This document shows, one piece after another, positions 11,795 through 29,529 of a stretch of DNA of 30,010 nt. Source of the stretch: a virus (Duplodnaviria; Caudoviricetes); IMG/VR virus record IMGVR_UViG_3300050160_000054, positions 1 to 30,010 of that record, one strand, 5' to 3'. The position numbers were made by a program, and so were the translations under genes. Every line of letters begins with the position of its first letter. Position 1 is the stretch's first letter. The notes beneath the pieces were generated by a model. It saw only the letters and a program-made list of their open reading frames with translations. It made no database searches and was not told where the DNA came from.

Positions 11795-12058
11795 TCAACT
11801 TTCCGCAGATTCAGTGGTTGCTTGCGCAGATTGGGTGGACGCTTGTGCAAGTTCTGGCCAAATGGTTTGCCAATCATCTGGTCGCAAATCTCGACGTGTT
11901 ACTGCACCCCCAGTGGCGGTCTCAATACTTGGACAGCGCCATACAGGTACCGGCTTGACACCTGTTGCCCATTGCCAAACCAACTGGGGCTGTGTACCAA
12001 GTGCACGAGCCAAGTTGGATTTACTGCCGTGCTCAGAAAGATAAGCGGATAGCTTCAT
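11795..12058 (-). CDS. cro: Cro-like repressor (YdaS family)
   Basis: LARALGTQPQLVWQW...CPSIETATGGAVTRRDLRPDDW; divergent from CI. Confidence 0.85.
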   Translation of the reverse strand: MKLSAYLSEHGSKSNLARALGTQPQLVWQWATGVKPVPVWRCPSIETATGGAVTRRDLRPDDWQTIWPELAQASTQSAQATTESAES

Positions 12059-12154: not shown

Positions 12155-12622
12155 ATGAACACCATTGATGAGATCAGGCTGGAAAACCTGCGTGCGCTAA
12201 TAAAAGAGAAGGGCTCGCAAAAGAAGGTCTCCGACGACACCGGAACAAGCCAGGTCTATTTGAGTCAGCTCCTTAACGCAGCCAAGGATGCAAAGACGGG
12301 AAAGGCAAGACAGATTGGCGACGACATGGCACGTAAGCTCGAAATCGGATGCGGAAAAGTACGCGGCTGGCTTGATAACGTCCACTCAACTCGCCCAAAC
12401 CTTGAGTACCAGCAAGACAGTCCAACCATCGCAGTTGCGGCAGAGCCAAATGTTGTTTACACAATCAAGGCTGCTCCCGATCTACATACAGAGCGCCTAA
12501 CTCAGCTGTGGAATGAACTAGACGTATCCAGCAAGACTGAACTTCTCAACATGATTGAATTTTTCGTTGCGGGTCGCCGCCCACATCGCGACGGCCAAGC
12601 TCATACCGTGGCCGGGTACTAA
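12155..12622 (+). CDS. cI: CI-like XRE repressor without an S24 peptidase domain
   Basis: IRLENLRALI...YLSQLL...IGDDMARKLEIGCGKVRGWLD; divergent from cro across the operators. Confidence 0.8.
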   Translation: MNTIDEIRLENLRALIKEKGSQKKVSDDTGTSQVYLSQLLNAAKDAKTGKARQIGDDMARKLEIGCGKVRGWLDNVHSTRPNLEYQQDSPTIAVAAEPNVVYTIKAAPDLHTERLTQLWNELDVSSKTELLNMIEFFVAGRRPHRDGQAHTVAGY

Positions 12623-12727
12623 TAAAAAGCGGGAGCGCAGGGGCAACAAAAACAATAACCCCGGACAACTTAATCCTGCCCTGGACGTCGTGGAAAACAA
12701 CACATCCAACAGGTGCAACAGCAAGCA

Positions 12728-13321
12728 ATGAGCGCGTCACTTGAACCTCTGCAACTTCTTGGGATCAAGAAGCGGGAAAAGCGCGCCTTTTTTGCGCGTT
12801 ACGGGGTGCGCGTAGTCGAGGAGCTCTACAAAAAAAAATTCTTTGCCCTTTTTGAAAATCGCTGTTTCCGGTGCGGCGCCTATGAAGCTCCTACCTGGGT
12901 GTGGGCGCCGGCAGTCCTATGCATGGACCATCACATTCCATTTCACAGAGGCGGGCATTTTGAAGCTGGGAATTTGGTATGCCTTTGTCGGCCATGCAAC
13001 ACTCAAAAACGAGACAAGGACCCTGCGATTTACTACCCCCCTTCTTTACTGAACCGGTTGACACCCTTGTTAAGTGCACAGGAAACACTTTTCAAATTTC
13101 AGTGGAACGAAGAGAAATGGCGCGCTGACCCAGCAGGCTACCTCGCAAGTATTGGTGTTCCCAGCGAACAGATCCACTTAACCTTTAACGACGAGTATTT
13201 TTACGGGTACATCCATCCTGATGATGTAGCGCTACCCCTTTGGGGCATCACCATAAAGTGCTCCGACCCTGATGCGCTGCTACTAGGGAAAGATCAGTTA
13301 AGCGCGCAGAATAAAATTTAA
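12728..13321 (+). CDS. HNH endonuclease-domain moron in the immunity region
   Basis: CFRCG...DHHIPFHRGG...NLVCLCRPCNTQK; more AT-rich than flanks; start at 12713 or 12728. Confidence 0.8.
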   Translation: MSASLEPLQLLGIKKREKRAFFARYGVRVVEELYKKKFFALFENRCFRCGAYEAPTWVWAPAVLCMDHHIPFHRGGHFEAGNLVCLCRPCNTQKRDKDPAIYYPPSLLNRLTPLLSAQETLFKFQWNEEKWRADPAGYLASIGVPSEQIHLTFNDEYFYGYIHPDDVALPLWGITIKCSDPDALLLGKDQLSAQNKI

Positions 13322-14784: not shown

Positions 14785-14994
14785 ATGCCCCACCAAGTTC
14801 TTCCAATTGCGGCCATAGAGGCCAAGGCCCGCACAGATGCGGCGATCTACGACAACGTGAACGACGCCTGCCCCTACAGCTTCTACACCGAGGCCGGCCG
14901 CGTCTACAAAGCCGCCTTCCAGAAGGAACGCCTTGCCATGTCCATGAAGGGCAAGCCCGAGGTGAAGACCAACCGGACGAGGGCTGCAGCGTGA
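14785..14994 (+). CDS. Small early protein (ACPY motif)
   Basis: MPHQVLPIAAIEAKAR...NDACPYSFYTEAG; GTGA overlap with the next gene. Confidence 0.6.
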   Translation: MPHQVLPIAAIEAKARTDAAIYDNVNDACPYSFYTEAGRVYKAAFQKERLAMSMKGKPEVKTNRTRAAA

Positions 14995-15626
14995 ACTGGC
15001 TTGTAACCGCCCACGCCCGTGAGCATGAGCTCACCGGTACCGCTGCCACCCACCCCGACAACGTGCCCAGCCTGAGCGAGATCGGGCACTCGCTGGCACA
15101 GATCAACCGGTTTACCGGCCACGCCACCCGCCCCTACAGCGTTGCAGAGCACAGCCTGCTGGTGCTGAGCTTGGCCCGTAATGAGTACGCATCGCCAGAG
15201 CTGCAATTTGCAGCCCTGATGCATGACGCCCACGAGTGCATCACCAGCGATGTGGCCAGCCCGATCAAGGCCGAGCTGGGCCCAGTGTGGGCTGCCTTTG
15301 AATGGAAGCACCAGCGCCACTTGCTGGAGCAGTACGAGCTGCTGGACGTGTTCACCCAGTACAAGGCCCGCATCAAGCGCTGGGACCTGATCGCACTGGC
15401 GACCGAGCGCAGCCAGATCACCCGCTTCAACCCGCTGTACCACCGCCTCTGGCCGATTCTGGACACGCCAGGCGAAGAGATACCGGTGGCCACCAGCGTG
15501 GATCTGAATGAGCACTGGCGCTGCGTCAACACCTGGGCGACTTGGGCCCACGTGTTCACCCAGCAGGCCGAAGAGCTGCAGACCCGAATCATGAAGGCCA
15601 ATGTGAACGGGCGGGCTGCAGCATGA
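14991..15626 (+). CDS. HD-domain phosphohydrolase (YfbR/YfdR-like nucleotidase)
   Basis: LAQINRFTGH...YSVAEHS...ALMHDAHE...DLIALATE motifs. Confidence 0.85.
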   Translation: MNWLVTAHAREHELTGTAATHPDNVPSLSEIGHSLAQINRFTGHATRPYSVAEHSLLVLSLARNEYASPELQFAALMHDAHECITSDVASPIKAELGPVWAAFEWKHQRHLLEQYELLDVFTQYKARIKRWDLIALATERSQITRFNPLYHRLWPILDTPGEEIPVATSVDLNEHWRCVNTWATWAHVFTQQAEELQTRIMKANVNGRAAA

Positions 15627-15868
15627 GCACCACCCTCGCAGACCGCGCCAAAGGCACCGCCTTTGAGGTCATCTACCAACCACGCGCAGTGCCTGACAGC
15701 TGCCGCCCGCCGAAGAAAAGCGGACCGAAGCCCAGCAGCACCAAAAAACACGCCGCATGGGCTGGCCTGCAGCCGCTGGAAAACGTGGCACCCGGATTCA
15801 ACACCCCTATCACCACCCGCGAGCAGTCAGCACGGACTGCGCGCATTCGTGGGCGAGGAAACAAGTAA
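15623..15868 (+). CDS. Basic early hypothetical protein
   Basis: MSTTLADRAKG...; ATGA coupling. Confidence 0.55.
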   Translation: MSTTLADRAKGTAFEVIYQPRAVPDSCRPPKKSGPKPSSTKKHAAWAGLQPLENVAPGFNTPITTREQSARTARIRGRGNK

Positions 15869-15896
15869 CCCCACCCACCACCAACAGGAGATCACC

Positions 15897-16224
15897 ATGC
15901 TCACCATCGCAAACCTACCCGCCCTAGGCGAACAACTTGAAAACGGCACCTTTGCCGGCATCACTACCAAGCCTGACGGCACCCACCATGCCGTGGTTTT
16001 GCTGCCTGACCAAGGCACAGAGCTCACATGGAAGAAAGCCATGAACTGGGCCAAGAAGCTGGAAGCAGAGCTGCCCTCACGCCCCGTAGCGGCACTGGAC
16101 CAGCGAGGAAGACGACGCCTCTTTCGCCTGGTGTTGCGGCTTCGACGGCGGCAACCAGGGCTACTACCGCAAGAGCTACGAAGGCTCGGCTGTTGCCGTC
16201 CGCTTGATTCCCCTCACCGCTTGA
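15897..16224 (+). pseudogene. DGR target 1 (DUF1566/C-lectin-like), frameshifted near 16095
   Basis: CAGGAG RBS; MLTIANLP...LTWKKAMNWAKKLEAELPSRPVAAL continues in the +1 frame as HWTSEEDDASFAWCCGFDGGNQGYYRKSYEGSAVAVRLIPLTA*; paralogous to 16258-16719. Confidence 0.85.
16115..16203 (+). repeat. DGR variable repeat VR1
   Basis: 89-bp ungapped match to TR; 13 mismatches, all at TR adenines. Confidence 0.95.
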
Positions 16225-16257
16225 TTCTTCAATCCTTTTAACCCCTCGGAGCCAACT

Positions 16258-16719
16258 ATGTCCACACTTACCCTTGAAGTCATCGAAGCGAAACACAACG
16301 AGCTGAGCAAGCTGATTGCCCAGTTCAAAGCCGATGCCAACAAACCCACAACATGGTTTTTCCCAGAAGTCTCTATTGAACTCGCACCGGGCGAGCGCTA
16401 CGCCGGCGCAGTGCTGACTGAAACAGGCCATATCGACCACCACCTCGTGCTGATGGCCGCGCGCCCAGAAGGAAAGCTGGAGTGGCAAGCCGCCATGGAT
16501 TGGGCTGCCAGCGTTGGTGGTGACCTGCCTAGCCGTCAAGAGCAGGCTCTGCTCTACGCCAACTGCAAGCCGCATATGAAACCAGAGTGGCACTGGTCCA
16601 ACGAGACCCATGAAAACGACGCCTCTTACGCCTGGGGTTGCTACTTCAGCAACGGCGGCCAGGTCAACCTCCGCAAGAGCTACGAAGGCTCGGCTGTTGC
16701 CGTCCGCCGGATTCGCTGA
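16258..16719 (+). CDS. DGR target 2 (DUF1566/C-lectin-like)
   Basis: WQAAMDWAASVGGDLPSRQEQALL...WHWS...AW...AVAVRR; VR2 at the C-terminus. Confidence 0.9.
   Translation: MSTLTLEVIEAKHNELSKLIAQFKADANKPTTWFFPEVSIELAPGERYAGAVLTETGHIDHHLVLMAARPEGKLEWQAAMDWAASVGGDLPSRQEQALLYANCKPHMKPEWHWSNETHENDASYAWGCYFSNGGQVNLRKSYEGSAVAVRRIR
16619..16707 (+). repeat. DGR variable repeat VR2
   Basis: 89-bp ungapped match to TR; 11 mismatches, all at TR adenines. Confidence 0.95.
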
Positions 16720-16762
16720 GTCCTTCAATCCTTTAATTCTTTGAACTGAGCCACACCAAGCC

Positions 16763-17125
16763 ATGGCTTTGCACACCGAACTTCCCATTTACCGCACAGG
16801 CGTGCGCCTGCTTGACTTTGCCGTCAAAGCACAAGTGCAGATGCCACGCACCGTGAAACGCGCACTGGGCGAAAAAATCACCCAGCACTGCGTTGAAATG
16901 CTGGACCTGATGGCCTTGGCCAATGCCACCCAGCGCGATGTGCGCGCCGGGCATATCGACCAGCTACTGACCCGTCAGCGCGCCATGACTGTGCTGCTGC
17001 GTGTCAGCCACGATGCCCGGTACATATCGCCGAAGCTGTGGGCAGACTCCATTGAGTTGCTGGGAAGCATCGGCAAGCAGGCTGGTGGCTGGCTCAAGAC
17101 TGCGAACAGGGCGCCTGCTGTATGA
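16763..17125 (+). CDS. avd: DGR accessory variability determinant (four-helix bundle)
   Basis: ELPIYR...PRTVKRALGEKI...IGKQAGGWLK; located between the targets and TR/RT. Confidence 0.9.
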   Translation: MALHTELPIYRTGVRLLDFAVKAQVQMPRTVKRALGEKITQHCVEMLDLMALANATQRDVRAGHIDQLLTRQRAMTVLLRVSHDARYISPKLWADSIELLGSIGKQAGGWLKTANRAPAV

Positions 17126-18480
17126 CGGTCAAGGCCCTCATGCCCGTGCGCATAGTGAATCTGGTCGCGCCGCTGGCCCACAAGGCCACCAACATGCACA
17201 CCACGGATACCGCTGCCACTGCGCAGGCTGCGTCCAGTGCAGCCGCCCCACTGATCGGCGCGAGCCTTCGGTCGGCCGGCCTAAATAGCGCGATAGGTAC
17301 GCCTCTTACGCCTGGAATTGCAACTTCAACAACGGCAACCAGAACAACAACCACAAGAGCTACGAAGGCTCGGCTGTTGCCGTCCGCAGATCCACACCTG
17401 TTCCAGCAACTGGTGCAGGCCTACCTCGACTGCCGACGCACCAAGCGCAATAGCGCCAGTGCGCTGGCTTTTGAGGCACAGGCTGAGCACAACCTTTTCC
17501 AACTCTACGAAGAGCTGGCATCCGGCACCTACCAGCCCGGCGGCTCGGTGTGCTTTGTTATCACCCACCCTAAGCCACGCGAGGTGTGGGCAGCACGCTT
17601 CCGCGATCGCATCGTGCATCACCTGCTCTACAACCACATTGCGCCGCGCTTTCATGCGCGATTTGTGGCCGACATTTGCGCCTGCATTCCAGGGCGTGGC
17701 ACGCTGTACGCCGCCAACCGGCTGGAGCACCAGGTGCGCAGCTACACGGCTAACTGGAGCCAGCCGGCGCACTATCTCAAGTGTGATTTGGCGAACTTCT
17801 TTGTCTCGATCAACAAAGCGGTGCTGCTGGAGCAGCTGCAGCGCCAGGTGCCAGAGCCATGGTGGATAGCACTGGCCGAAGTAGTCCTGATGCACGACCC
17901 ACGCCACAACGTGGAAGTACGCGGAACCCGCAGCGAATTGGCACTGGTGCCCCACCATAAGAGCCTATTCAATGCCCCGGATGGCCACGGCCTACCCATT
18001 GGGAACCTGAGCAGCCAGTTCTTTGCCAACGTGCTGCTGGACGATCTGGACCAGTTCATCAAACACCAACTGCGCGCACCGACCTATGTGCGCTATGTGG
18101 ATGACTTCGTGATGCTGCACACCAGCCCGCAATGGCTCAATGCTGCGCGCCAGCGCATCGAGGCCAAACTGGAAACCTTGAGCTTGCAACTCAACCCACG
18201 CAAGACAATTTTGCAACCGGTAGCGCGTGGTATTGACTTTGTTGGACACATCATCAAACCACACCGCCGGATCACGCGCCGCAAGACCGTGCGCACTATG
18301 CTGGATCGCCTGCAGGACATGCCAGCAGCCGACCTGCACCAATCCGCCAACAGCTATTTCGGGCTGTTGCGCCAAGCCACACACAGCCACCACGACCGCA
18401 CCCGGGTTGCCAAGCTCATGCTGCAGCGCGGCCATGTGGTGGCGGGGGACATGACCAAGATTTACAGGAAGCACACGTGA
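17122..18480 (+). CDS. DGR reverse transcriptase
   Basis: PKPREVWAARFRDRIVHH, LKCDLANFF, GLPIGNLSSQFFAN (DGR-type SQ), YVRYVDDF, GIDFVG. Start uncertain; the conserved core begins ~17398. Confidence 0.95.
   Translation: MTVKALMPVRIVNLVAPLAHKATNMHTTDTAATAQAASSAAAPLIGASLRSAGLNSAIGTPLTPGIATSTTATRTTTTRATKARLLPSADPHLFQQLVQAYLDCRRTKRNSASALAFEAQAEHNLFQLYEELASGTYQPGGSVCFVITHPKPREVWAARFRDRIVHHLLYNHIAPRFHARFVADICACIPGRGTLYAANRLEHQVRSYTANWSQPAHYLKCDLANFFVSINKAVLLEQLQRQVPEPWWIALAEVVLMHDPRHNVEVRGTRSELALVPHHKSLFNAPDGHGLPIGNLSSQFFANVLLDDLDQFIKHQLRAPTYVRYVDDFVMLHTSPQWLNAARQRIEAKLETLSLQLNPRKTILQPVARGIDFVGHIIKPHRRITRRKTVRTMLDRLQDMPAADLHQSANSYFGLLRQATHSHHDRTRVAKLMLQRGHVVAGDMTKIYRKHT
17299..17387 (+). repeat. 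DGR template repeat (TR)
   Basis: ACGCCTCTTACGCCTGGAATTGCAACTTCAACAACGGCAACCAGAACAACAACCACAAGAGCTACGAAGGCTCGGCTGTTGCCGTCCGC; 26 adenines, 8 AAY codons in the target frame. Confidence 0.95.
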
Positions 18481-19385
18481 AAGCAATTGATCTATTTGCC
18501 GGTGCTGGTGGCTTTTCCACTGGCGCCATCATGGCCGGCGTGCAAGTTGTCTGGGCTGCCAACCACTGGCCAGCTGCTGTGCAAGTGCATGCAAACAACC
18601 ACCCGGACACCATTCACCTCTGCCAAGACCTTCAGCAGGCCGACTGGAGCCAAGTGCCTGAGCATGATCTATTGATGGCGTCGCCGGCCTGCCAAGGCCA
18701 CAGCCGCGCCCGGGGCAAGGAACGCGCTCACCATGACGCACAACGCTCCACAGCATGGGCAGTAGTGTCTGCCGCCGAGTTTCACCGGCCCAAGGCATTG
18801 CTGGTAGAGAACGTGCCCGAGTTTGGCAAGTGGGAACTTTTCCCCGCCTGGTGCTCTGCGATGGGTGCACTGGGTTACGCCCTGTCGCCCATGATTCTGG
18901 ATGCAGCTGACCATGGCGTGGCGCAGCACCGCCGCCGCTTGTTCATTGTGGGCACCCGCAGCAAGCACCCCGTGGCGCTGGATCTGCCCCGCCGTGCACA
19001 CGTTGGCTCTTCCCAAATCATCGACTTTGAGGCCGGCCGCTGGTCTGCCGTCAACAAGCAAGGGCGCAGCCTGTCCACTTTGGCGCGCATCACCGAAGGC
19101 CGCAAGGCCCACGGCGAGCGCTTCCTGACTGCCTATTACGGCAACGAGCAGGGAGGCCGAAGCCTGAGCCGCCCCGTGGGGACCATCACCACCCGTGACC
19201 GCTGGGCCGTCATCGATGGTGACCGCATGCGGATGCTGTCAGTGGATGAATGCCGCAAGGCTATGGGCTTCCCCGCTGAGTACCAACTCCCTACCCGCGC
19301 CAAAGACGCCATGCACATGCTGGGTAACGCAGTTGTGCCAGTGGTTGCGCGGGATGTGATCGAAGCACTGAAGGCAGCCGCATGA
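18477..19385 (+). CDS. C5 cytosine DNA methyltransferase (orphan)
   Basis: DLFAGAGG, SPACQGHS, VENVPE, QHRRRLF and LGNAV motifs. Confidence 0.92.
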   Translation: MKAIDLFAGAGGFSTGAIMAGVQVVWAANHWPAAVQVHANNHPDTIHLCQDLQQADWSQVPEHDLLMASPACQGHSRARGKERAHHDAQRSTAWAVVSAAEFHRPKALLVENVPEFGKWELFPAWCSAMGALGYALSPMILDAADHGVAQHRRRLFIVGTRSKHPVALDLPRRAHVGSSQIIDFEAGRWSAVNKQGRSLSTLARITEGRKAHGERFLTAYYGNEQGGRSLSRPVGTITTRDRWAVIDGDRMRMLSVDECRKAMGFPAEYQLPTRAKDAMHMLGNAVVPVVARDVIEALKAAA

Positions 19386-19936: not shown

Positions 19937-20409
19937 GAAAGACCAGCACCTTCGCCCGCAAGCGCAGAGCAGGCCACGGCCACCACGCCAACCCCATTGC
20001 AGCTTTCAGCCTGCTCGACCAGGCGCGCCCGTTTGATGAAAACGACAGCCTGCAGCACCTGATTGACGACCACCAGGCGGCGTACACCCGCCTGTGCACC
20101 GGACAGGGCAGCCACGAGGACTTTGACAACGTGAGCATGAAACTCAATGTGGGCCTAGTCCGCGCCGAAGACATTGACCCCCTGTTGGTTGCCACCATGA
20201 ATCTGGGCATTGGCGCCATGGTGCGCATGCAGCAGCGTGTGATGCGCGGCCTGTCTTTCGGGTTTGACGCTGACGGCCTGCGCGATGTGCCCTATGCACT
20301 GGAAGCCTATGAGGCCATTCTGGTCAAGAGCAGCCCGCTCCAGATGAAGCTGGCCATTCAGGAAGCATGGCGCCGGGTGACCGGTGGTGATGTGTTGGAG
20401 GTGCATTGA
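19933..20409 (+). CDS. Phage hypothetical protein
   Basis: 158-aa ORF, ATGA-coupled within the operon. Confidence 0.7.
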   Translation: MRKTSTFARKRRAGHGHHANPIAAFSLLDQARPFDENDSLQHLIDDHQAAYTRLCTGQGSHEDFDNVSMKLNVGLVRAEDIDPLLVATMNLGIGAMVRMQQRVMRGLSFGFDADGLRDVPYALEAYEAILVKSSPLQMKLAIQEAWRRVTGGDVLEVH

Positions 20410-20410
20410 T

Positions 20411-20887
20411 ATGAGCCAAGGAGCCGAAATGACACTGATTGAACAATTACGTGCTATTGCATGGCAGGACGAAGCACATAGCTCTGATCTATATGACAAA
20501 GCCGCCGATGCCATTCAAGCGCTGCAAGCAGAGAACGAGCGCATTGAGTCTGAGTTAAATGCCGCAGTTGCAAACTGGTCGAGCATGGAGACGTCCCTTG
20601 TAGATTGGCGCAACAAATGCCGCAAAGCAGAAGCCGAGCGTGACGCCCTTGCTGCAAAGCTGGTGCCGCTGACGGATGAGCACATCAAAGCCGCACACAT
20701 TTGCCACCAAGCTGGGCGTGTATCGGTGTCTATGGTTCAGCGCAAACTGGCTACAGGCTACAACCGCGCACAGCAACTTGTCACTGAAATAGTTTCCGCT
20801 CGACTTGTTGATGGGCTTGAAGTTGCGGGACTGCCGAATAGCGCTCACGGAATCCAAGCCAAGGGAGGCCAGCATGAAGATGCCTGA
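20411..20887 (+). CDS. Coiled-coil protein with FtsK-gamma-like domain
   Basis: Coiled-coil N-terminus, then GRVSVSMVQRKLATGYNRAQQLV; start at 20411 or 20429. Confidence 0.7.
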   Translation: MSQGAEMTLIEQLRAIAWQDEAHSSDLYDKAADAIQALQAENERIESELNAAVANWSSMETSLVDWRNKCRKAEAERDALAAKLVPLTDEHIKAAHICHQAGRVSVSMVQRKLATGYNRAQQLVTEIVSARLVDGLEVAGLPNSAHGIQAKGGQHEDA

Positions 20888-21137: not shown

Positions 21138-21399
21138 ATTAACCCGCCAGCAACTCTGTGCTGCGCTGGGCATCAGCGAGAGCACGGTCCGGCGTCTGGA
21201 GGTCGATGGTCTACCATTCACCCCCGTGGGTGTCAGGGCGAAGCGTTACGACCTGGCCGAGTGCAAGGCATGGCTTAAGGCAAATCAATGTCAATCTGGG
21301 AAGACAAACAAGGGCGTAAGCACGTCGGCATTATGGTCGGCGGGCAAAGAATTCACCGCATCCTACCGGAAGGCACAACTGCGCGTGATGCCAAGCTGA
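21130..21399 (+). CDS. xis: Excisionase-like wHTH protein
   Basis: LTRQQLCAALGISESTVRRLEVDGLP...RYDLAECKAWL; overlaps the 5' end of int. Confidence 0.75.
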   Translation: MSELTRQQLCAALGISESTVRRLEVDGLPFTPVGVRAKRYDLAECKAWLKANQCQSGKTNKGVSTSALWSAGKEFTASYRKAQLRVMPS

Positions 21400-22331
21400 T
21401 TGAGGCCGAGTTACGCTCGGCTGTCGTCAAGTCACCCAAAGCGGTGAACATCCCCGGCGATCCACCCATGACCGCCATCCTCGCGATCTACGTCGCCCAC
21501 GCCAAGAGCCTCAGAAGTTCCGACACCTCAGAGCACCACGCTAACCGGCTGGGGCCATGGGCTGAAAAGTACCGAGCCAGTCAGGCCCGAGAGTTTGCCG
21601 CCCACGTGATCAAGGACATGAGCAAGCTAATTCCCGACGAAAAGACCGGCAAGAAAAAACCCGCCTACGCTGCGGCCACCATCAACCGAAGCCTAGCCAC
21701 CGCCAAGAAGGGTTTGGCCTTGGCATGGGATCAGAACCTGACGCCCGAGAACTACGGCCTGCGTATCAAGGGCGTGGCAGTGAACAACAAGCGGGAGATA
21801 TTCCTGAATGTGGAGCAGGTCCGAACAATCACCTCCCATTGTTCGGAGCAGGCGCAGGCCGCTATCTGGGCTGCACTCCTGACCGGTGCCCGCCGTGGCG
21901 AACTATTCCAGATCAGGGCAGAGCACATCCTCGAAGACGTGATCGTCATCCCCGCCAGCCATACCAAGACCCAGCGCAGCCGCATGGTTCCCATCATCCC
22001 CGCCCTGCGTCCATGGCTGGCTCACTTCCCGCTGACTATTACTGTGGACGGCGTGAAGAGTGCATGGAGACGCGCCAGGGTGGAGGCCGGCATGCCTGAC
22101 GTGAATTTCCATGATCTGCGCCACAGCTGCGCCAGCATCCTCTTGGGTCTGGGTGTCGATCTGTACACCATCGGGGAAATCCTTGGGCACAGCAACGTGC
22201 AAACCACCAAGCGTTATGCACATTTGCAGATCGAGCAGCAACGCGCAGCCCTGAATAAGCTGAGCGCCTTGGTATTGCCAGAGGAAAAACAAAAAACCCG
22301 CACCACCAAGAAGGCAGTGCGGGTTGCTTGA
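21288..22331 (+). CDS. int: Tyrosine integrase
   Basis: TGARRGE, HTKT, FHDLRHSCAS, LGHSNVQTTKRY catalytic residues. Confidence 0.95.
   Translation: MSIWEDKQGRKHVGIMVGGQRIHRILPEGTTARDAKLIEAELRSAVVKSPKAVNIPGDPPMTAILAIYVAHAKSLRSSDTSEHHANRLGPWAEKYRASQAREFAAHVIKDMSKLIPDEKTGKKKPAYAAATINRSLATAKKGLALAWDQNLTPENYGLRIKGVAVNNKREIFLNVEQVRTITSHCSEQAQAAIWAALLTGARRGELFQIRAEHILEDVIVIPASHTKTQRSRMVPIIPALRPWLAHFPLTITVDGVKSAWRRARVEAGMPDVNFHDLRHSCASILLGLGVDLYTIGEILGHSNVQTTKRYAHLQIEQQRAALNKLSALVLPEEKQKTRTTKKAVRVA
22285..22325 (-). terminator. Rho-independent terminator embedded in the int 3' end
   Basis: Minus strand AACCCGCACTGCC-TTCTT-GGTGGTGCGGGTT stem (two G-U pairs) followed by TTTTGTTTTT. Confidence 0.7.
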
Positions 22332-24637: not shown

Positions 24638-25327
24638 TTAACGGAAAATGGCAATAGAGATTCGTCCGTCATCCTGTATCGCATTGCTGACCTGATTGCG
24701 AACAGTTAAGGACACTGAACCAGCAAGCGCTGTGGCTGTACTTTTTAAGTGTGCAGAGACACCGTTACCGCCAGCGCCGGTAGAAGCCACAACTGAATAA
24801 AGACCATCCGGAATGGCTGTTGTGAACGTGACCGTGTAATCACCTACGCCGTTACGGGTAACGCTAGAGACATTCCCGCCTGAGGTAGGCGCATTGGTGC
24901 CCGTCAGTGTTCCGTCAAACACACACCAAGCGCGTGCGCCGTAGATTGGAGCACTACCAGTTTGTGCGCCGGATAACTTTGCAGCAGTGATTGCGGCGTT
25001 TGCAATATCAGCAGTCAATACCGAGTTGTCAGGCAAGCCGCCAGCAGTCAGTGCGGTCAGGCTGGTAATGTCGCCGTTTGCACCAGATGCTGCGGCACCG
25101 GTTGGCACACCTGTGGCTAAATTCAGCACATTCACCCAGGCGCTGTTGGCTGCGTTGCGCTGCTTCAAGATGCCGCTGGTAGTGTCTGCCCACCATTGAT
25201 AAGCAAATGTGGTGGCAGGCGCAGTAGCACCGCTGCTGTTGCTGGCCAGAGCTTGCAACGCAGCATTAATGTCTGCCCGCGTTGCAGTAAAGGTCTGATT
25301 ACTAACGTCCATGTCATGCTGTGCCAT
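24638..25327 (-). CDS. Short tail fibre/receptor-binding protein
   Basis: MAQHDMDVSNQ...RADINAALQAL, GANGDITSL, ARAWCVFDG...NVSSVTRNGVGDYTVTF. Confidence 0.75.
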   Translation of the reverse strand: MAQHDMDVSNQTFTATRADINAALQALASNSSGATAPATTFAYQWWADTTSGILKQRNAANSAWVNVLNLATGVPTGAAASGANGDITSLTALTAGGLPDNSVLTADIANAAITAAKLSGAQTGSAPIYGARAWCVFDGTLTGTNAPTSGGNVSSVTRNGVGDYTVTFTTAIPDGLYSVVASTGAGGNGVSAHLKSTATALAGSVSLTVRNQVSNAIQDDGRISIAIFR

Positions 25328-25338
25328 GTGATTCCTCT

Positions 25339-27948
25339 CTAAACAGGTGTTTTGATATCCACAGCCAGCGTGCTAACTGCGATGTTGTGGGTACTGACGC
25401 CGCTGACCAGATCCAGCCGGAACTTGACGGCGCGTGCGGTGATGTCGGCCACAAAGAACGGCGTCCACGGCCCCCACGTGGGGCTGCCGGCGGGGTCGTC
25501 GTTGGTGGTGGCGTAGTACAGGGTGGCGTCACAGTCGTTGATGGCTGTGCCATCAAAGTCGCCGGGCGCATCGTCAAAAAGCCCGGGACGGCTGTCGAAC
25601 AGATCCAGGCTGTCAAAAGACAAAACCTTGATGTCCGCCTCAATGCGGCGAGTAGCCACGGTGACCATGTCGGTGTAAGTGTTAAACAGATACGTGCCGG
25701 CAGTGGCAAAACCGCCATAGCTGTCAAACAAGCCAATGGCCGAATCGAACAAGCCACCCACACTGTCAAAAGTGGCTGTGGTGTCTAGCAGCAGCGAACC
25801 GCCCACAGCAGCCACCCCGGTCTTGCTGCCTGAGAATGCTGGGCTCTGTGTGTTGCTGGCCACGGTGTTGAAGCCTGTGACCATGCCTTCAGCAGCCACA
25901 AAACTCGCCATGGTTGAGCTAAAGCTGCCAGAGGAGTCTTTGAACTTTGCCATGTAGGTGCCGGTGATCAGCGGCAGCAGGCCGCTGGTGGCATCACCAG
26001 CAAACTCATCGAGCACCACACCATCCTGCCAAGTGGCGCCACTGGTTTGGGGGCTGTGGCGCACCACCACGCGCCCACCAATGCGCACATCAAGGTCGGT
26101 GGTCAAATTCCACGCTGCAATGGCTACGCCGCCCACTTTGGTGATACTGAAGTTGTTCACATTGGACGGCGCCGCAATCAAGCCCAATACTTCACGGGTG
26201 ACGGTGGGGCTGTATTCGCTCTTTACGCCGAATGTGTTGACCGCCCGCAGCCGGAACAGGTAAGTGCCGGGCGCCAAGTCTTGCAGCTCATGGCTGGTGT
26301 CTGAGGCCATGGGCAGCACTGTCCAATCCACATCGGTGGAATTGCGGTACTCCAGCACATAGCCCACTACAAAGGCATCATTTACAGGCAGCCAGGTAAC
26401 AATGGCTTTGCTCTTGACGCCCGCGCTGCCGGTGGTTTGGTAGATCTGCTCGGTCACTGTCGGGCCGCCAGGCGCCTCCACCACAAACGGATCACCAAGG
26501 CCGGTATCGGGGGCCGGGTCCACCACGGTCTCCAGCCCGCTATTCCAGTTGTAGCTGGCGGCTGTTTCCTCTTGCAGCACCAGGTTGACACCACCGTCAG
26601 CGCTGAAGCTCCACTCCAACACCTTGAACTCTTTGGTCGACCAGCCAAGCTGGCTGAGGGTGACCATGACGGTATCCATGGTGGCAACCTTGAAGGCGGT
26701 GAGCTTGCACGGCAGCTCCACGGTGATGCCTTGGCGGCTGCGCTCCAGCGTCAGCTTGGCAATGCGCTGGGCTGTAGCTGAGCTGGTGGTGTACGGCATA
26801 ACCGCATCGCGCCAGATGACTTGCCCGCCGTCTTGCGCGGCGTAGGTAGCATTGCTCACCGTGGGGAAGTCGGTCGGCTGCCAATAGGCGTCGGGGTCCA
26901 CAAACGTGCCGCGGACGGCATTGAACAGCTCTTTGCGGCTCAGGCGCGGGCGCACTTTGACAGGGCCGCGCAGGTCATCGGCTGTGAGCGTGACGGCCGG
27001 CGCAGTGTAGGCACCGGCGTGGATCTGATACACACCCGCACTCCAGACCACAAAGCCCGCCATGCTGGTGAGCATGTCTTCCATGATGCTGCGCGGGGTG
27101 TCGCCAGTGTCCACCACGCCGTTGCAGGTGTAGCGGGCCTCTGTGCCACCACCGGCCAAGGCCACGGATTCATCGCACACATTGGCGGCAGCCACCAGCA
27201 AGGCGCTGTCCACCTCAGACGCGGATGCTTCCAGCCCGTAGGCGCTGGTGATGTAGTCACGCACGCACAAGGCGGGGTTGGCACTCCAGGCGGTGAGGCC
27301 GGTGCGGGGGTCGTAGACCTTGCGGCCACGGACCACAGCTTTGATGTTGGGGATGCCGGTGGGAAACGCATCGGCAGACCACTGCAGGCGGATGGCCATG
27401 TAAGCCACACCGGCCAGGCGGTGATCGGCAGTCCAGCCGATGTTGGCAGCCACCAAGTCAGCGTCTGCGACATCGCCAGCGGTGCCCAGATGCTTTTTGA
27501 CCAGCACTTTGCCGGTGTAAGGCGCGGTGGTGGCGTAGCCTGAGCCATCCAGGGCCACTTCCACATCGTTCAAATACAGAGTTTCAATGGCGTCAATCTC
27601 ATGCGCGCCCACCGGCACTACCAGCCAAAGGTATTGATTCGACGTACCAGCCACCCCACCGAACACCAGCGGCCCGGACACCATGGCGCGGCCATAGATG
27701 ACCGTGCGGTTGGCCACACTGGAGCGGATGAGCTGATCACGCCCCTGCACCGATGCTGCAAACGATTTGGACAAGTCGCCTGAGCCCTTCCCCTTAATAG
27801 CGCCATTTGCGGTTTTGCCTAAGCTGTACCCTACGGCGGCGCCTTGGGGGCCACCATATACAAATCCCACCACGGCGCCAACATAGGGCAGAGCGTCGAC
27901 AATGACGTTGCCTACATCCTGGACGGCTTTTTCTACTGCTTGAGGCAT
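25339..27948 (-). CDS. Tail tip/host-specificity protein (gpJ-like, FN3 domain)
   Basis: VIYGRAMVSG, VRGRKVYDPR...WSANPALC, YLFRLRAVNTFG; start MPQAVEK. Confidence 0.85.
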   Translation of the reverse strand: MPQAVEKAVQDVGNVIVDALPYVGAVVGFVYGGPQGAAVGYSLGKTANGAIKGKGSGDLSKSFAASVQGRDQLIRSSVANRTVIYGRAMVSGPLVFGGVAGTSNQYLWLVVPVGAHEIDAIETLYLNDVEVALDGSGYATTAPYTGKVLVKKHLGTAGDVADADLVAANIGWTADHRLAGVAYMAIRLQWSADAFPTGIPNIKAVVRGRKVYDPRTGLTAWSANPALCVRDYITSAYGLEASASEVDSALLVAAANVCDESVALAGGGTEARYTCNGVVDTGDTPRSIMEDMLTSMAGFVVWSAGVYQIHAGAYTAPAVTLTADDLRGPVKVRPRLSRKELFNAVRGTFVDPDAYWQPTDFPTVSNATYAAQDGGQVIWRDAVMPYTTSSATAQRIAKLTLERSRQGITVELPCKLTAFKVATMDTVMVTLSQLGWSTKEFKVLEWSFSADGGVNLVLQEETAASYNWNSGLETVVDPAPDTGLGDPFVVEAPGGPTVTEQIYQTTGSAGVKSKAIVTWLPVNDAFVVGYVLEYRNSTDVDWTVLPMASDTSHELQDLAPGTYLFRLRAVNTFGVKSEYSPTVTREVLGLIAAPSNVNNFSITKVGGVAIAAWNLTTDLDVRIGGRVVVRHSPQTSGATWQDGVVLDEFAGDATSGLLPLITGTYMAKFKDSSGSFSSTMASFVAAEGMVTGFNTVASNTQSPAFSGSKTGVAAVGGSLLLDTTATFDSVGGLFDSAIGLFDSYGGFATAGTYLFNTYTDMVTVATRRIEADIKVLSFDSLDLFDSRPGLFDDAPGDFDGTAINDCDATLYYATTNDDPAGSPTWGPWTPFFVADITARAVKFRLDLVSGVSTHNIAVSTLAVDIKTPV

Positions 27949-28367
27949 TAGCCGACCCTCACGCAAGACTGCAAACCGGAGTGATCCAGCCGCACATATT
28001 CAAGACCTTTGTGGCCCAGCACCGCCACTTGGCTGCCGGTGCACACGCCCAAGTGCTCGCCATACTTGTCATGGAAAACCAGCACATCACCACGGCGGGC
28101 GGTCAGCACGGGCGATGGCGGCACGCCAATCACCTTGGCGGCAGCGGCCTCCAGCGTGGCGCCATGCTTGGCCAGCACCTCCACAGCCTCGCGGCGGGTC
28201 GTGTAGCCGGCAAAGTGCGACCAAAAGTCAACCCCGCACATGGCGGCAATGCACTGGCAGGTAAAGCGCAGGCAGTCATGCACGCCGATCTGGTAGGGCT
28301 TGGACTGGGCGGCAGCCACTTGCGCGGCAAGCTGCTCGGGCCAGTCTTGGTGGCGGGTGAGTTGCAT
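27948..28367 (-). CDS. Tail-tip NlpC/P60-like protein
   Basis: DWPEQL...GVHDCLRF...ARRGDV...HLGVC. Confidence 0.75.
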   Translation of the reverse strand: MQLTRHQDWPEQLAAQVAAAQSKPYQIGVHDCLRFTCQCIAAMCGVDFWSHFAGYTTRREAVEVLAKHGATLEAAAAKVIGVPPSPVLTARRGDVLVFHDKYGEHLGVCTGSQVAVLGHKGLEYVRLDHSGLQSCVRVG

Positions 28368-28369
28368 GC

Positions 28370-28927
28370 TTAGTACCCCCACCGCAGTGATTTCTCGACC
28401 ATCTGGGGCACAAATTCAAAGCCCTTGTCAGTGGCATCGGTGATGGCCTGGTCGGCGGCGTTGTAGCGGCGCACCCGGGGGCGGTCCCAGTCAGCCAGGC
28501 GGCTCTCAGCACTCACGGTGATGGTGGCGGTGCTGCCGATTTCCACATCCATGGTGTCCATGCGCCCGGAAAACACCAGCGCGGGATCGGGCAACACGGC
28601 ATAGCCCTCATCGAGCGGAGCCAGCCACACCTTGCAGGAGCGGCCCTGATACTGCTGGCCCAGTGCGGTGGCGATATTGGCGCTATCGATGCCGGTGATG
28701 GTGAACTTGAGGCTGCGGGCCTCCAAGGTCATGCCCTCGCTGACAGCATCGATGCTGCCCAGCCGGCCAATACCCAGCCAGGTGTAGCCATTCCAGCTCA
28801 TAGACTGGGCGGAGTTGTTGACGCGCAGAAAGCCGCCAGGGAAATCCATTTCCACAAACACCACGCCGCGCACTTGAGCTGCGGCAAGGGCATTGGAAGC
28901 GGCGGTGGTAAGTGAACGGCCGGCCAT
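28370..28927 (-). CDS. Minor tail/tail-tip hub protein
   Basis: WNGYTWLGIG...FSGRMDTM...ESRLADWDRPRVRRY...DKGFEFV. Confidence 0.75.
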   Translation of the reverse strand: MAGRSLTTAASNALAAAQVRGVVFVEMDFPGGFLRVNNSAQSMSWNGYTWLGIGRLGSIDAVSEGMTLEARSLKFTITGIDSANIATALGQQYQGRSCKVWLAPLDEGYAVLPDPALVFSGRMDTMDVEIGSTATITVSAESRLADWDRPRVRRYNAADQAITDATDKGFEFVPQMVEKSLRWGY

Positions 28928-29529
28928 TACCAAGCCTCCGTGGCAGAAATGGCAAAGCTGCTGATCAGCGCGGGGGCGGTGGACCAGCGCACGGTGTCTT
29001 CATCGAGCTTGAAAACGCCTTTGGGCTTGTTGGTGGTGATGACTGCGGCATTGGCCGGGCTAGCGCGCAGTGGCGGCTCAAAGGTGACGGAGGCAGCGCC
29101 TGAGCCGTTGGATACTGCGTCGGCCACCACCATTTTGAGCTCGCCATTGACTTCAAAGAAGTCGCCAGCCTTCAGCACGGCGGCACTGACCGGCCAGCCA
29201 GTGGTGGTCAACGTGGTGCCTGTCTGCCCTGCCCCGCTGACAACCGGCGAGCCACCAGCCACGCCGCGGGGAATGGGGTGCGCCATGTTGTGCATGTAAA
29301 AGCGGCCGGACTGGCCGCGCAGCTTGACCAACCATGCGCGCAGCAACGCCGCATCATCAGGGTGCAGGTTGTTCATGGGGAAGCTGAACTGCCAGCGGGC
29401 ACCGGGCAGTTCCAGCGTTTGCACGCTGCCGGACAAGGGGCTACTGAATGTCTGGGTATTGCTCACCAGTGCCCATTCCAGCGTGGCTGGGCCTGAGCGC
29501 GTGAGGGTGGGCCATGTGTGGATGGTCAT
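28927..29529 (-). CDS. Distal tail protein
   Basis: FSSPLSGSVQT...GARWQF...LKAGDFF...FEPPLR; directly downstream of the tape measure. Confidence 0.75.
   Translation of the reverse strand: MTIHTWPTLTRSGPATLEWALVSNTQTFSSPLSGSVQTLELPGARWQFSFPMNNLHPDDAALLRAWLVKLRGQSGRFYMHNMAHPIPRGVAGGSPVVSGAGQTGTTLTTTGWPVSAAVLKAGDFFEVNGELKMVVADAVSNGSGAASVTFEPPLRASPANAAVITTNKPKGVFKLDEDTVRWSTAPALISSFAISATEAW

Follow-up and report, generated by a model that had tools for sequence, protein, structure and literature searches.

The stretch of 30,010 nucleotides analysed here (the window) is positions 1 to 30,010 of IMG/VR record IMGVR_UViG_3300050160_000054, an incomplete temperate phage that carries a cassette of the diversity-generating retroelement (DGR) type. 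Along the plus strand the cassette runs target 1, target 2, avd, template repeat (TR) and reverse transcriptase (RT), the order given in the initial annotation and seen again on re-examination. The TR (17299..17387, plus strand) is an AAC-rich sequence of 89 nt with 26 adenines, and it aligns without gaps to one variable repeat (VR) in each target gene. VR1 (16115..16203, plus strand) differs from it by 13 substitutions (9 to G, 4 to T) and VR2 (16619..16707, plus strand) by 11 (7 to G, 3 to T, 1 to C), every one at a TR adenine. Recomputation gave the same pooled figure as had been annotated, with 24 of 24 mismatches at TR adenines (16 to G, 7 to T, 1 to C) and a chance probability of about 1.6e-15. 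The 14 sites at which VR1 and VR2 differ from each other are likewise all TR adenines. No third VR was found within the 30,010-nt contig, where the next best place has 28 mismatches outside adenines. The cassette is almost certainly a genuine DGR, one that has altered adenine codons in the tips of two small genes predicted to encode C-type-lectin proteins.

Targets 1 and 2 are paralogues. Target 2 (16258..16719, plus strand) encodes 153 amino acids (aa) and no signal peptide, with an amphipathic N-terminal helix of heptad-like spacing (residues 6–27) and a predicted C-type-lectin domain that carries the VR in frame at its C-terminus. The fold was modelled by AlphaFold at a mean predicted local distance difference test score of 84.9, falling below 60 in the VR loop. 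By VIA Z scores the model resembles the tip of Bdellovibrio Bd2740 (Z 10.3, root-mean-square deviation 2.8 over 103), the C-terminal domain of Legionella Lcl (Z 9.7, deviation 4.3 over 112) and Mtd (Z 6.7). Foldseek returned no match to the target structure at E 0.001 in PDB or BFVD; a PDB sequence search gave only a weak Lcl match (E 0.08), and the ESM Atlas matches were unnamed viral clusters and Lcl_C. Against Pfam Lcl_C (PF07603, DUF1566) target 2 reaches 23.7 bits (E 6e-5), below the cut-off of 34.9. Many homologues do carry PF07603. The proteins had been described as small, stand-alone and DUF1566/C-lectin-like with no signal peptide. The short length, the lectin-fold model and the lack of a lipobox hold, but PF07603 is under its cut-off and target 1 is broken.

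Target 1 (15897..16224, plus strand) has its N-terminal half in frame 0 and its VR-bearing lectin C-terminal half in frame +1 relative to the ATG at 15897. The open reading frame (ORF) from this ATG encodes 114 aa and ends at 16241; its N-terminal half is normal and VR1 is read out of frame. Intact relatives of 122–145 aa have about 12 extra codons at the deletion site. A contig from another sample, run X2, has the gene in its intact form: it is identical to 15700–16097, continues for 37 further letters and then rejoins the window at 16091. The window therefore lacks 44 nt between two copies of a 7-nt direct repeat, one of which remains at the junction (16091..16097, plus strand). Restoring the 44 nt gives a target 1 of 123 codons. 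The matching contig of run X1 ends two unlike letters beyond 16097. No piece bridging the window form of the junction was found among the X1 and X2 contigs listed, in which VR1 is thinly covered (X1) or partly uncovered (X2). The deletion may be a real variant or an assembly collapse. A folded variable protein is, by its frame, expected of target 2 only in this copy, and since target 1 is broken the window is a poor model of its family. The initial annotation of a complete two-target DGR thus stands for avd, RT, TR and target 2, which are intact, and fails for target 1, which is frameshifted with VR1 out of frame.

The machinery downstream of the targets is complete, as had been annotated. The avd gene (16763..17125, plus strand; phrog_3206) encodes a basic protein of 120 aa (pI 10.2) and matches PF22296 at 43.4 bits, above the cut-off of 40. 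The spacer between avd and TR is a full-length match to the structured RNA RT-15 (17109..17300, plus strand; Rfam RF03018, 157 bits, E 5.6e-39). The RT ORF (17122..18480, plus strand) encodes 452 aa and matches PF00078 and phrog_1423 (E 1e-107), with an intact YVDD at residue 325. The initial annotation had missed two features of this ORF: its ATG at 17122 overlaps the avd stop, and the TR is contained within it, in the +1 frame. A second in-frame ATG lies at 17194, the conserved core begins at about 17389 and the frame is open. Only 13 nt separate the TR end from the invariant Phe codon of the first RT helix, and there is no start codon between them.

The same arrangement recurs among the relatives. 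Eight loci without a parsed TR end were left out of the RT frame count, as were 10 in one other count. None of the 85 non-redundant loci has an in-frame ATG between the TR end and the invariant Phe. The frame is open from an ATG upstream of TR in 66 of them; 18 have the ATG inside TR and 1 has an upstream TTG. Where avd and RT overlap by ATGA, the overlapping ATG is in frame with the RT in 56 of 58 loci, and the in-frame loci show 10 different avd-to-TR lengths (253–283 nt), all differing by multiples of three. The other two frames carry stops in 56/56 and 46/56 loci. This frame conservation suggests that RT translation begins at the ATG overlapping avd and passes through both the RT-15 RNA and the TR. 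The upstream extension would then be a frame-keeping linker and not a conserved peptide, because the avd–TR spacer lacks a codon-position pattern (0.81/0.79/0.78). Some observations argue against reading through the template. An in-frame TTG lies 10 nt past TR in 14 of the 85 loci, the window has a GTG inside the first RT helix, and the loci are mutually related. Excess synonymous conservation after TR was not significant (p 0.095). A legend in Wu et al. 2018 (PMC5758913) gives TR as not translated, and the part of DiGReF 2012 (PMC3521204) that records TR overlap with annotated RT ORFs suggests separate transcription of RT and TR. A sister clade has a stop within TR, followed by two in-frame ATGs still within TR; that this closed-frame clade has its own ATG after TR was considered and rejected, as its ATGs sit inside TR.

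Each VR in the window is followed by a tandem 8-nt pyrimidine-rich motif (copy 1 at 16225..16237, copy 2 at 16721..16733, both plus strand). A 13-nt form of the motif, derived from the first 25 loci, was borne out in those added later. Both strands of the loci (2.39 Mb) contain it 79 times; 77 of these copies are found no more than 45 nt past a called VR, and the remaining 2 follow VR-like sequences below the VR threshold. The repeat core is present at least twice after 133 of 168 VRs, compared with 4 of 744 control ORF ends and none of the 83 TRs, and autocorrelation of the post-VR sequence is maximal at 8 nt. The motif is present after remote targets too. No GC-rich hairpin follows the window VRs, where folding energies are -1.2 and -4.4 kcal/mol; across the family the median is -3.5 against -3.3 for shuffled sequence, with 23 of 168 at or below -8. 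The tandem motif is a candidate target mark, which from its placement would stand in for the hairpin, and it may be an expanded end of the initiation of mutagenic homing (IMH) site instead of a new element. Pairing of the motif with the DGR RNA was rejected, as no complement with up to one mismatch was found in the RNA region 16701–18500.

The family is common: at least 578 relatives of its RT were counted in IMG/VR. VRs were screened across 83 related loci with up to 6 non-adenine substitutions allowed per VR; duplicate contigs, L030 (many frameshifts), L085 and L053 (edge) were left out before counting. The 168 VRs obtained under this threshold hold 1861 substitutions at adenines and 35 elsewhere. 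Two VRs were found in 61 loci, three in 11, four in 2, one in 5 and none in 4. Between the relatives L003 and L037, avd, TR and RT show no difference over 1500 nt, while their target 2 VRs differ at 13 TR-adenine sites and their target 1 VRs at 1, with no other differences elsewhere among the regions tested. The DGR is thus still active in this pair of relatives. At adenine-bearing AAC codons of the 168 VRs, Tyr, Gly, Leu and Thr lie above the expectation for independent substitution, and Cys, Ala and Val far below it (Cys 7 against 82); RT bias or selection may produce such a bias, and the two are not separable.

Target number and cassette integrity vary. Three or four targets per phage, some 3–9 kb upstream in the same arm, were seen in L019 (5001–6629), L102, L092 and L090, and L019 has three near-identical tandem target copies with different VRs. 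In L020 (5000–6500) both targets and avd are kept, the element is broken off inside TR and no RT remains. One intact target each, with no DGR nearby, lies at L013 (5001–5400) and L035 (1937–2350). The RT frame of L015/L016 (6528 on) stops at 231 codons through a frameshift, with both targets intact.

The gene content of the phage comprises lambda-like portal, terminase and primase, cro/cI, integrase, lysis and siphovirus-like tail-tip genes. Close RTs (73–84%) come from assemblies of Curvibacter, Hydrogenophaga, Limnohabitans and Acidovorax, so that the host is likely one of the Comamonadaceae; the best-matching metagenomes are from leaf litter. A Cro-like regulator (11795..12058, minus strand; phrog_35, E 2.7e-23) starts the divergent replication and late arm, and a CI-like repressor (12155..12622, plus strand; phrog_12107, E 2.3e-22) marks the upstream end of the early arm that bears the DGR. 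On this cI strand the cassette lies between an HD-domain nucleotide phosphatase (14991..15626, plus strand; phrog_318, E 9.7e-36) and a C5 DNA methyltransferase whose gene overlaps the RT stop (18477..19385, plus strand; PF00145, E 1.8e-49), and upstream of the tyrosine integrase that ends the arm (21288..22331, plus strand; PF00589, phrog_1). The tail module, with short tail fibre, J-like central fibre and distal tail protein (24638..29529, minus strand), holds no VR. It starts 7.9 kb from target 2 on the opposite strand, which agrees with the distance of about 8 kb annotated initially. Two further genes were noted. An HNH nuclease gene directly after cI (12713–13321) has weak PADLOC matches (PDC-M01B, type II restriction endonuclease, E 5e-4) and is a possible lysogen-expressed moron, and the early arm also encodes, at 20384–20887, a small protein that combines a coiled coil and an FtsK gamma domain (PF09397, over its cut-off).

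The position recurs across the family. Among the 54 loci that span 12 kb or more, 46 have an early marker, either integrase downstream or cro, cI or primase upstream; integrase was in range in 38 (downstream on the same strand in 30) and cro or cI upstream in 27. Among 109 de-replicated flanking ORFs, 54 match PHROGs, and by hand count none has a head, tail or connector protein as best match. The 24 named best matches, also counted by hand, comprise DNA metabolism (10), methylases, kinases and similar (7), integration (5), a PAPS reductase and a weak holin. The cultured phages Magia, vB_E192a, QDWS, Haboob, Cruim01 and LPPA56 carry the cassette in the same arm, and TR/VR pairs were checked in Magia, vB_E192a and QDWS. 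In lambda, the leftward early operon is the arm that carries early host-takeover genes. By analogy, the DGR-bearing arm may carry genes of the same kind, and expression of the targets would be early and controlled by cI.

The targets throughout the family are short soluble-looking proteins. Their length is 100–229 aa in 165 of the 168 (83 loci), and 896 relatives of target 2 have a similar length. A hydropathy scan, as distinct from SignalP, found the lipobox pattern in 0 of 168 targets, and 3 of 144 began with a stretch that is hydrophobic. The window targets have no tail-family match and no anchor domain. Family matches were sought in 27 whole records (13 rated at least 90% complete, and 3 cultured phages), and none was in a frame longer than 389 aa. 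A search for longer homologues scored 8000 candidates and gave 6 matches of 289–381 aa, one of them a fusion of targets 1 and 2, and none tail-like on inspection. The fusion, P0121 (290 aa, natural or mis-called), has a VR-like end on each half. Distant members (L059, L068, L070, L076, L086–L115) have targets of 160–230 aa with insertions in the lectin domain, and keep the tandem layout. Median nonsynonymous and synonymous diversity (pN/pS) in the scaffold is 0.18/0.64 for target 2 and 0.21/0.57 for target 1, so both scaffolds are under purifying selection. A complex predicted for window target 2 with target 1 of L007 scored a median of 0.25 against a mark of 0.32 and was counted neither way.

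An intracellular role is likely, being the best reading of the gene position together with the absence of export or anchor features, and the targets are quite probably not part of the virion. We propose that they act early and in the cytoplasm as variable proteins that bind host proteins, probably in counter-defence, and assign this a probability of roughly one half (0.52). RT and Avd would copy the TR RNA with errors at adenines and the cDNA would replace a VR, as is established for the class in BPP-1. RT itself would be made by translation that starts at the avd overlap and crosses the RT-15 RNA and TR, and the tandem 8-nt motif after each VR would mark the target in place of a hairpin. The variable lectin-fold proteins, expressed early, would then bind a host protein in the cytoplasm, most plausibly to blunt defences that vary among strains. 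The ligand class is a guess from the gene neighbourhood, and it is this neighbourhood that suggests an anti-defence role.

Several observations weigh against this proposal. The targets have no PADLOC match. Their closest solved folds, Bd2740 and Lcl, are surface adhesin tips, and viral DGR targets are mostly tail or virion proteins in Roux 2021 (PMC8144416; preprint 10.1101/2020.04.01.020958). The window contig lacks capsid and tape-measure genes, and a remote structural target could lie outside it. Eight of the 54 loci have no early-region marker, and a scan for promoters and terminators gave results at chance level, with fewer promoter sites than chance. The spectrum of variable residues does not differ between targets 1 and 2 (p 0.72), which gives no sign of distinct ligands. 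In the X1 and X2 contigs VR2 is identical to that of the window, contigs being assemblies that drop rare variants. Broken or orphan cassettes are also on record, namely window target 1, the RT of L015, L020, L013 and L035.

The adhesin-like folds (Z 10.3 and 9.7) lead to a different account, in which the targets would be accessory adhesins bound non-covalently to the virion head or tail. Target 2 would attach by its N-terminal helix, and the variation would alter which hosts or surfaces are bound, as with Mtd of BPP-1. The heptad-like amphipathic helix, the prevalence of tail proteins among phage DGR targets, and the naming of host range as a possibility by the Magia authors agree with it. However, the targets never lie beside structural genes in the surveyed loci, the helix is missing in the target 2 copies of L011, L012, L019 and L028, and extra copies are spread across the early arm, as with gene 57 of Magia. 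Nor are the targets tied to one tail type, being shared by Magia, a predicted myophage, and by the window phage with its siphovirus-like tail tip. We regard virion adhesins as unlikely. That 11 of 24 IMG/VR records are proviruses and that only temperate phages are found among the cultured carriers examined would suit prophage-borne sensors or exclusion factors, varying in the lysogen to keep pace with proteins of competing phages, and a variable surface rich in Tyr, Asp, Gly and Ser fits protein binding. This is less likely still, as the targets have no effector domain, conserved effector neighbour or PADLOC match, and the arm would be repressed by cI in the lysogen.

A largely selfish or episodically useful moron, with targets kept mainly as landing sites, would explain the broken target 1 of the window, the truncated RT of L015, the deleted RT of L020 and the variable neighbours. 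We consider it very improbable: the window target 1 is the only one of 168 targets (83 loci) broken away from a locus edge, both scaffolds are under purifying selection, and the orphan targets of L013 and L035 are intact without a DGR. Hardly any weight is given to action after lysis or on the phage's own machinery, as released receptor decoys or lysis-lysogeny regulators. Small soluble proteins would suit such a role and cI, xis and int adjoin the cassette in many loci, but hypervariation is hard to justify for a partner from the same genome, and linkage to lysis genes is lacking, with 1 of 109 neighbours weakly holin-like.

Phage DGRs are usually taken as tuning virion adhesins. Cytoplasmic binders, if the proposal is true, would be a programmable system of counter-defence or host takeover in a common family. 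One may go further and envisage a widespread class in proteobacterial temperate phages, with DGR-made, antibody-like intracellular inhibitors of defence, an RT translated through its template, and marking by a tandem 8-nt repeat without a hairpin; this generalization is tentative and, on balance, doubtful. Whatever the function of the targets, the VR-specific repeat bears on target recognition in the roughly two-thirds of DGRs without a hairpin, and conservation of the RT frame bears on whether translation across the template regulates retrohoming.

The prototype DGR of BPP-1 (mtd-avd-TR-brt) has in common with the window the gene order, the adenine-specific signature, Avd and a C-terminal VR in a C-type-lectin fold; bRT and the window RT are 31% identical. 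The BPP-1 target is a tail protein of 381 aa, whereas the window targets are small and placed away from the tail. In BPP-1 brt starts 145 nt after TR, while the window RT has no non-coding spacer from TR. One TGATTCTT 8-mer is found at the VR end of BPP-1 as well, followed there by a GC hairpin of -17.2 kcal/mol, unlike the -1.2 and -4.4 of the window. Work on BPP-1 reports that the hairpin after VR is needed for efficient homing and that RNA downstream of TR primes cDNA synthesis; unlike in BPP-1, such RNA would be RT coding sequence in the window. In Wu 2018 (PMC5758913), hairpins occur in 34% of DGRs only, two targets in 13%, and about half of category 'd' (CLec2, DUF1566; Legionella LdtA type), architecture B, whose DUF1566/Lcl_C-like domain target 2 matches below the Pfam cut-off, are short stand-alone proteins. 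LdtA is a surface lipoprotein, unlike the window-family targets, which have no lipobox (0/168). DiGReF 2012 (PMC3521204) lists multi-VR DGRs in Ralstonia, Burkholderia, Collimonas and Pseudomonas, and in its structural group 3 TR overlaps the annotated RT ORF as in the window, an overlap known there from annotation only. The RNA RT-15 (RF03018; Weinberg et al. 2017) is also annotated in Pseudomonas phage Cruim01. For RT motifs apart from RT-10, a role in DGRs is no more than a speculation in the main text of Weinberg et al.; in the window, unlike in that account, RT-15 belongs to a DGR and is contained in the ORF of the RT.

The literature searched, from which subscription journals were mostly absent and where supplements of Wu, Roux and Weinberg may list family features, gave no test of the targets, no early placement and no description of the 8-nt repeat. 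The same holds for the available passages of PMC3240598, PMC5737381, PMC11661182, PMC12860723, PMC11846083, PMC11433742, 10.1101/2024.10.15.618418 and 10.1101/2023.10.23.563531, and passages of the Haboob, phPA-G and E192a papers contain no virion proteomics or DGR discussion. RT translation across the template and the tandem 8-nt motif after VR were thus not found in print as tested claims. The DGR family is nonetheless catalogued, through Magia and Rfam RT-15, and uncharacterised. The same cassette is already annotated and published for Burkholderia phage Magia (MT701587), and its RNA is Rfam RT-15. The Magia announcement (PMC7883833) describes a potential DGR with short-frame targets, naming genes 47 and 57 only, and contains no discussion of early placement and no test. 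Unlike the window phage, Magia has a contractile tail and, at a distance from the cassette, a third target (gene 57). Like the window, it has two short lectin-fold targets, avd, TR and RT between repressor and integrase, with an annotated RT start upstream of TR and identities of 62% for RT, 46% for target 2 and 44% for Avd. The window cassette matches this Magia-type layout in its RT-15 RNA, its short tandem targets and its position between repressor and integrase.

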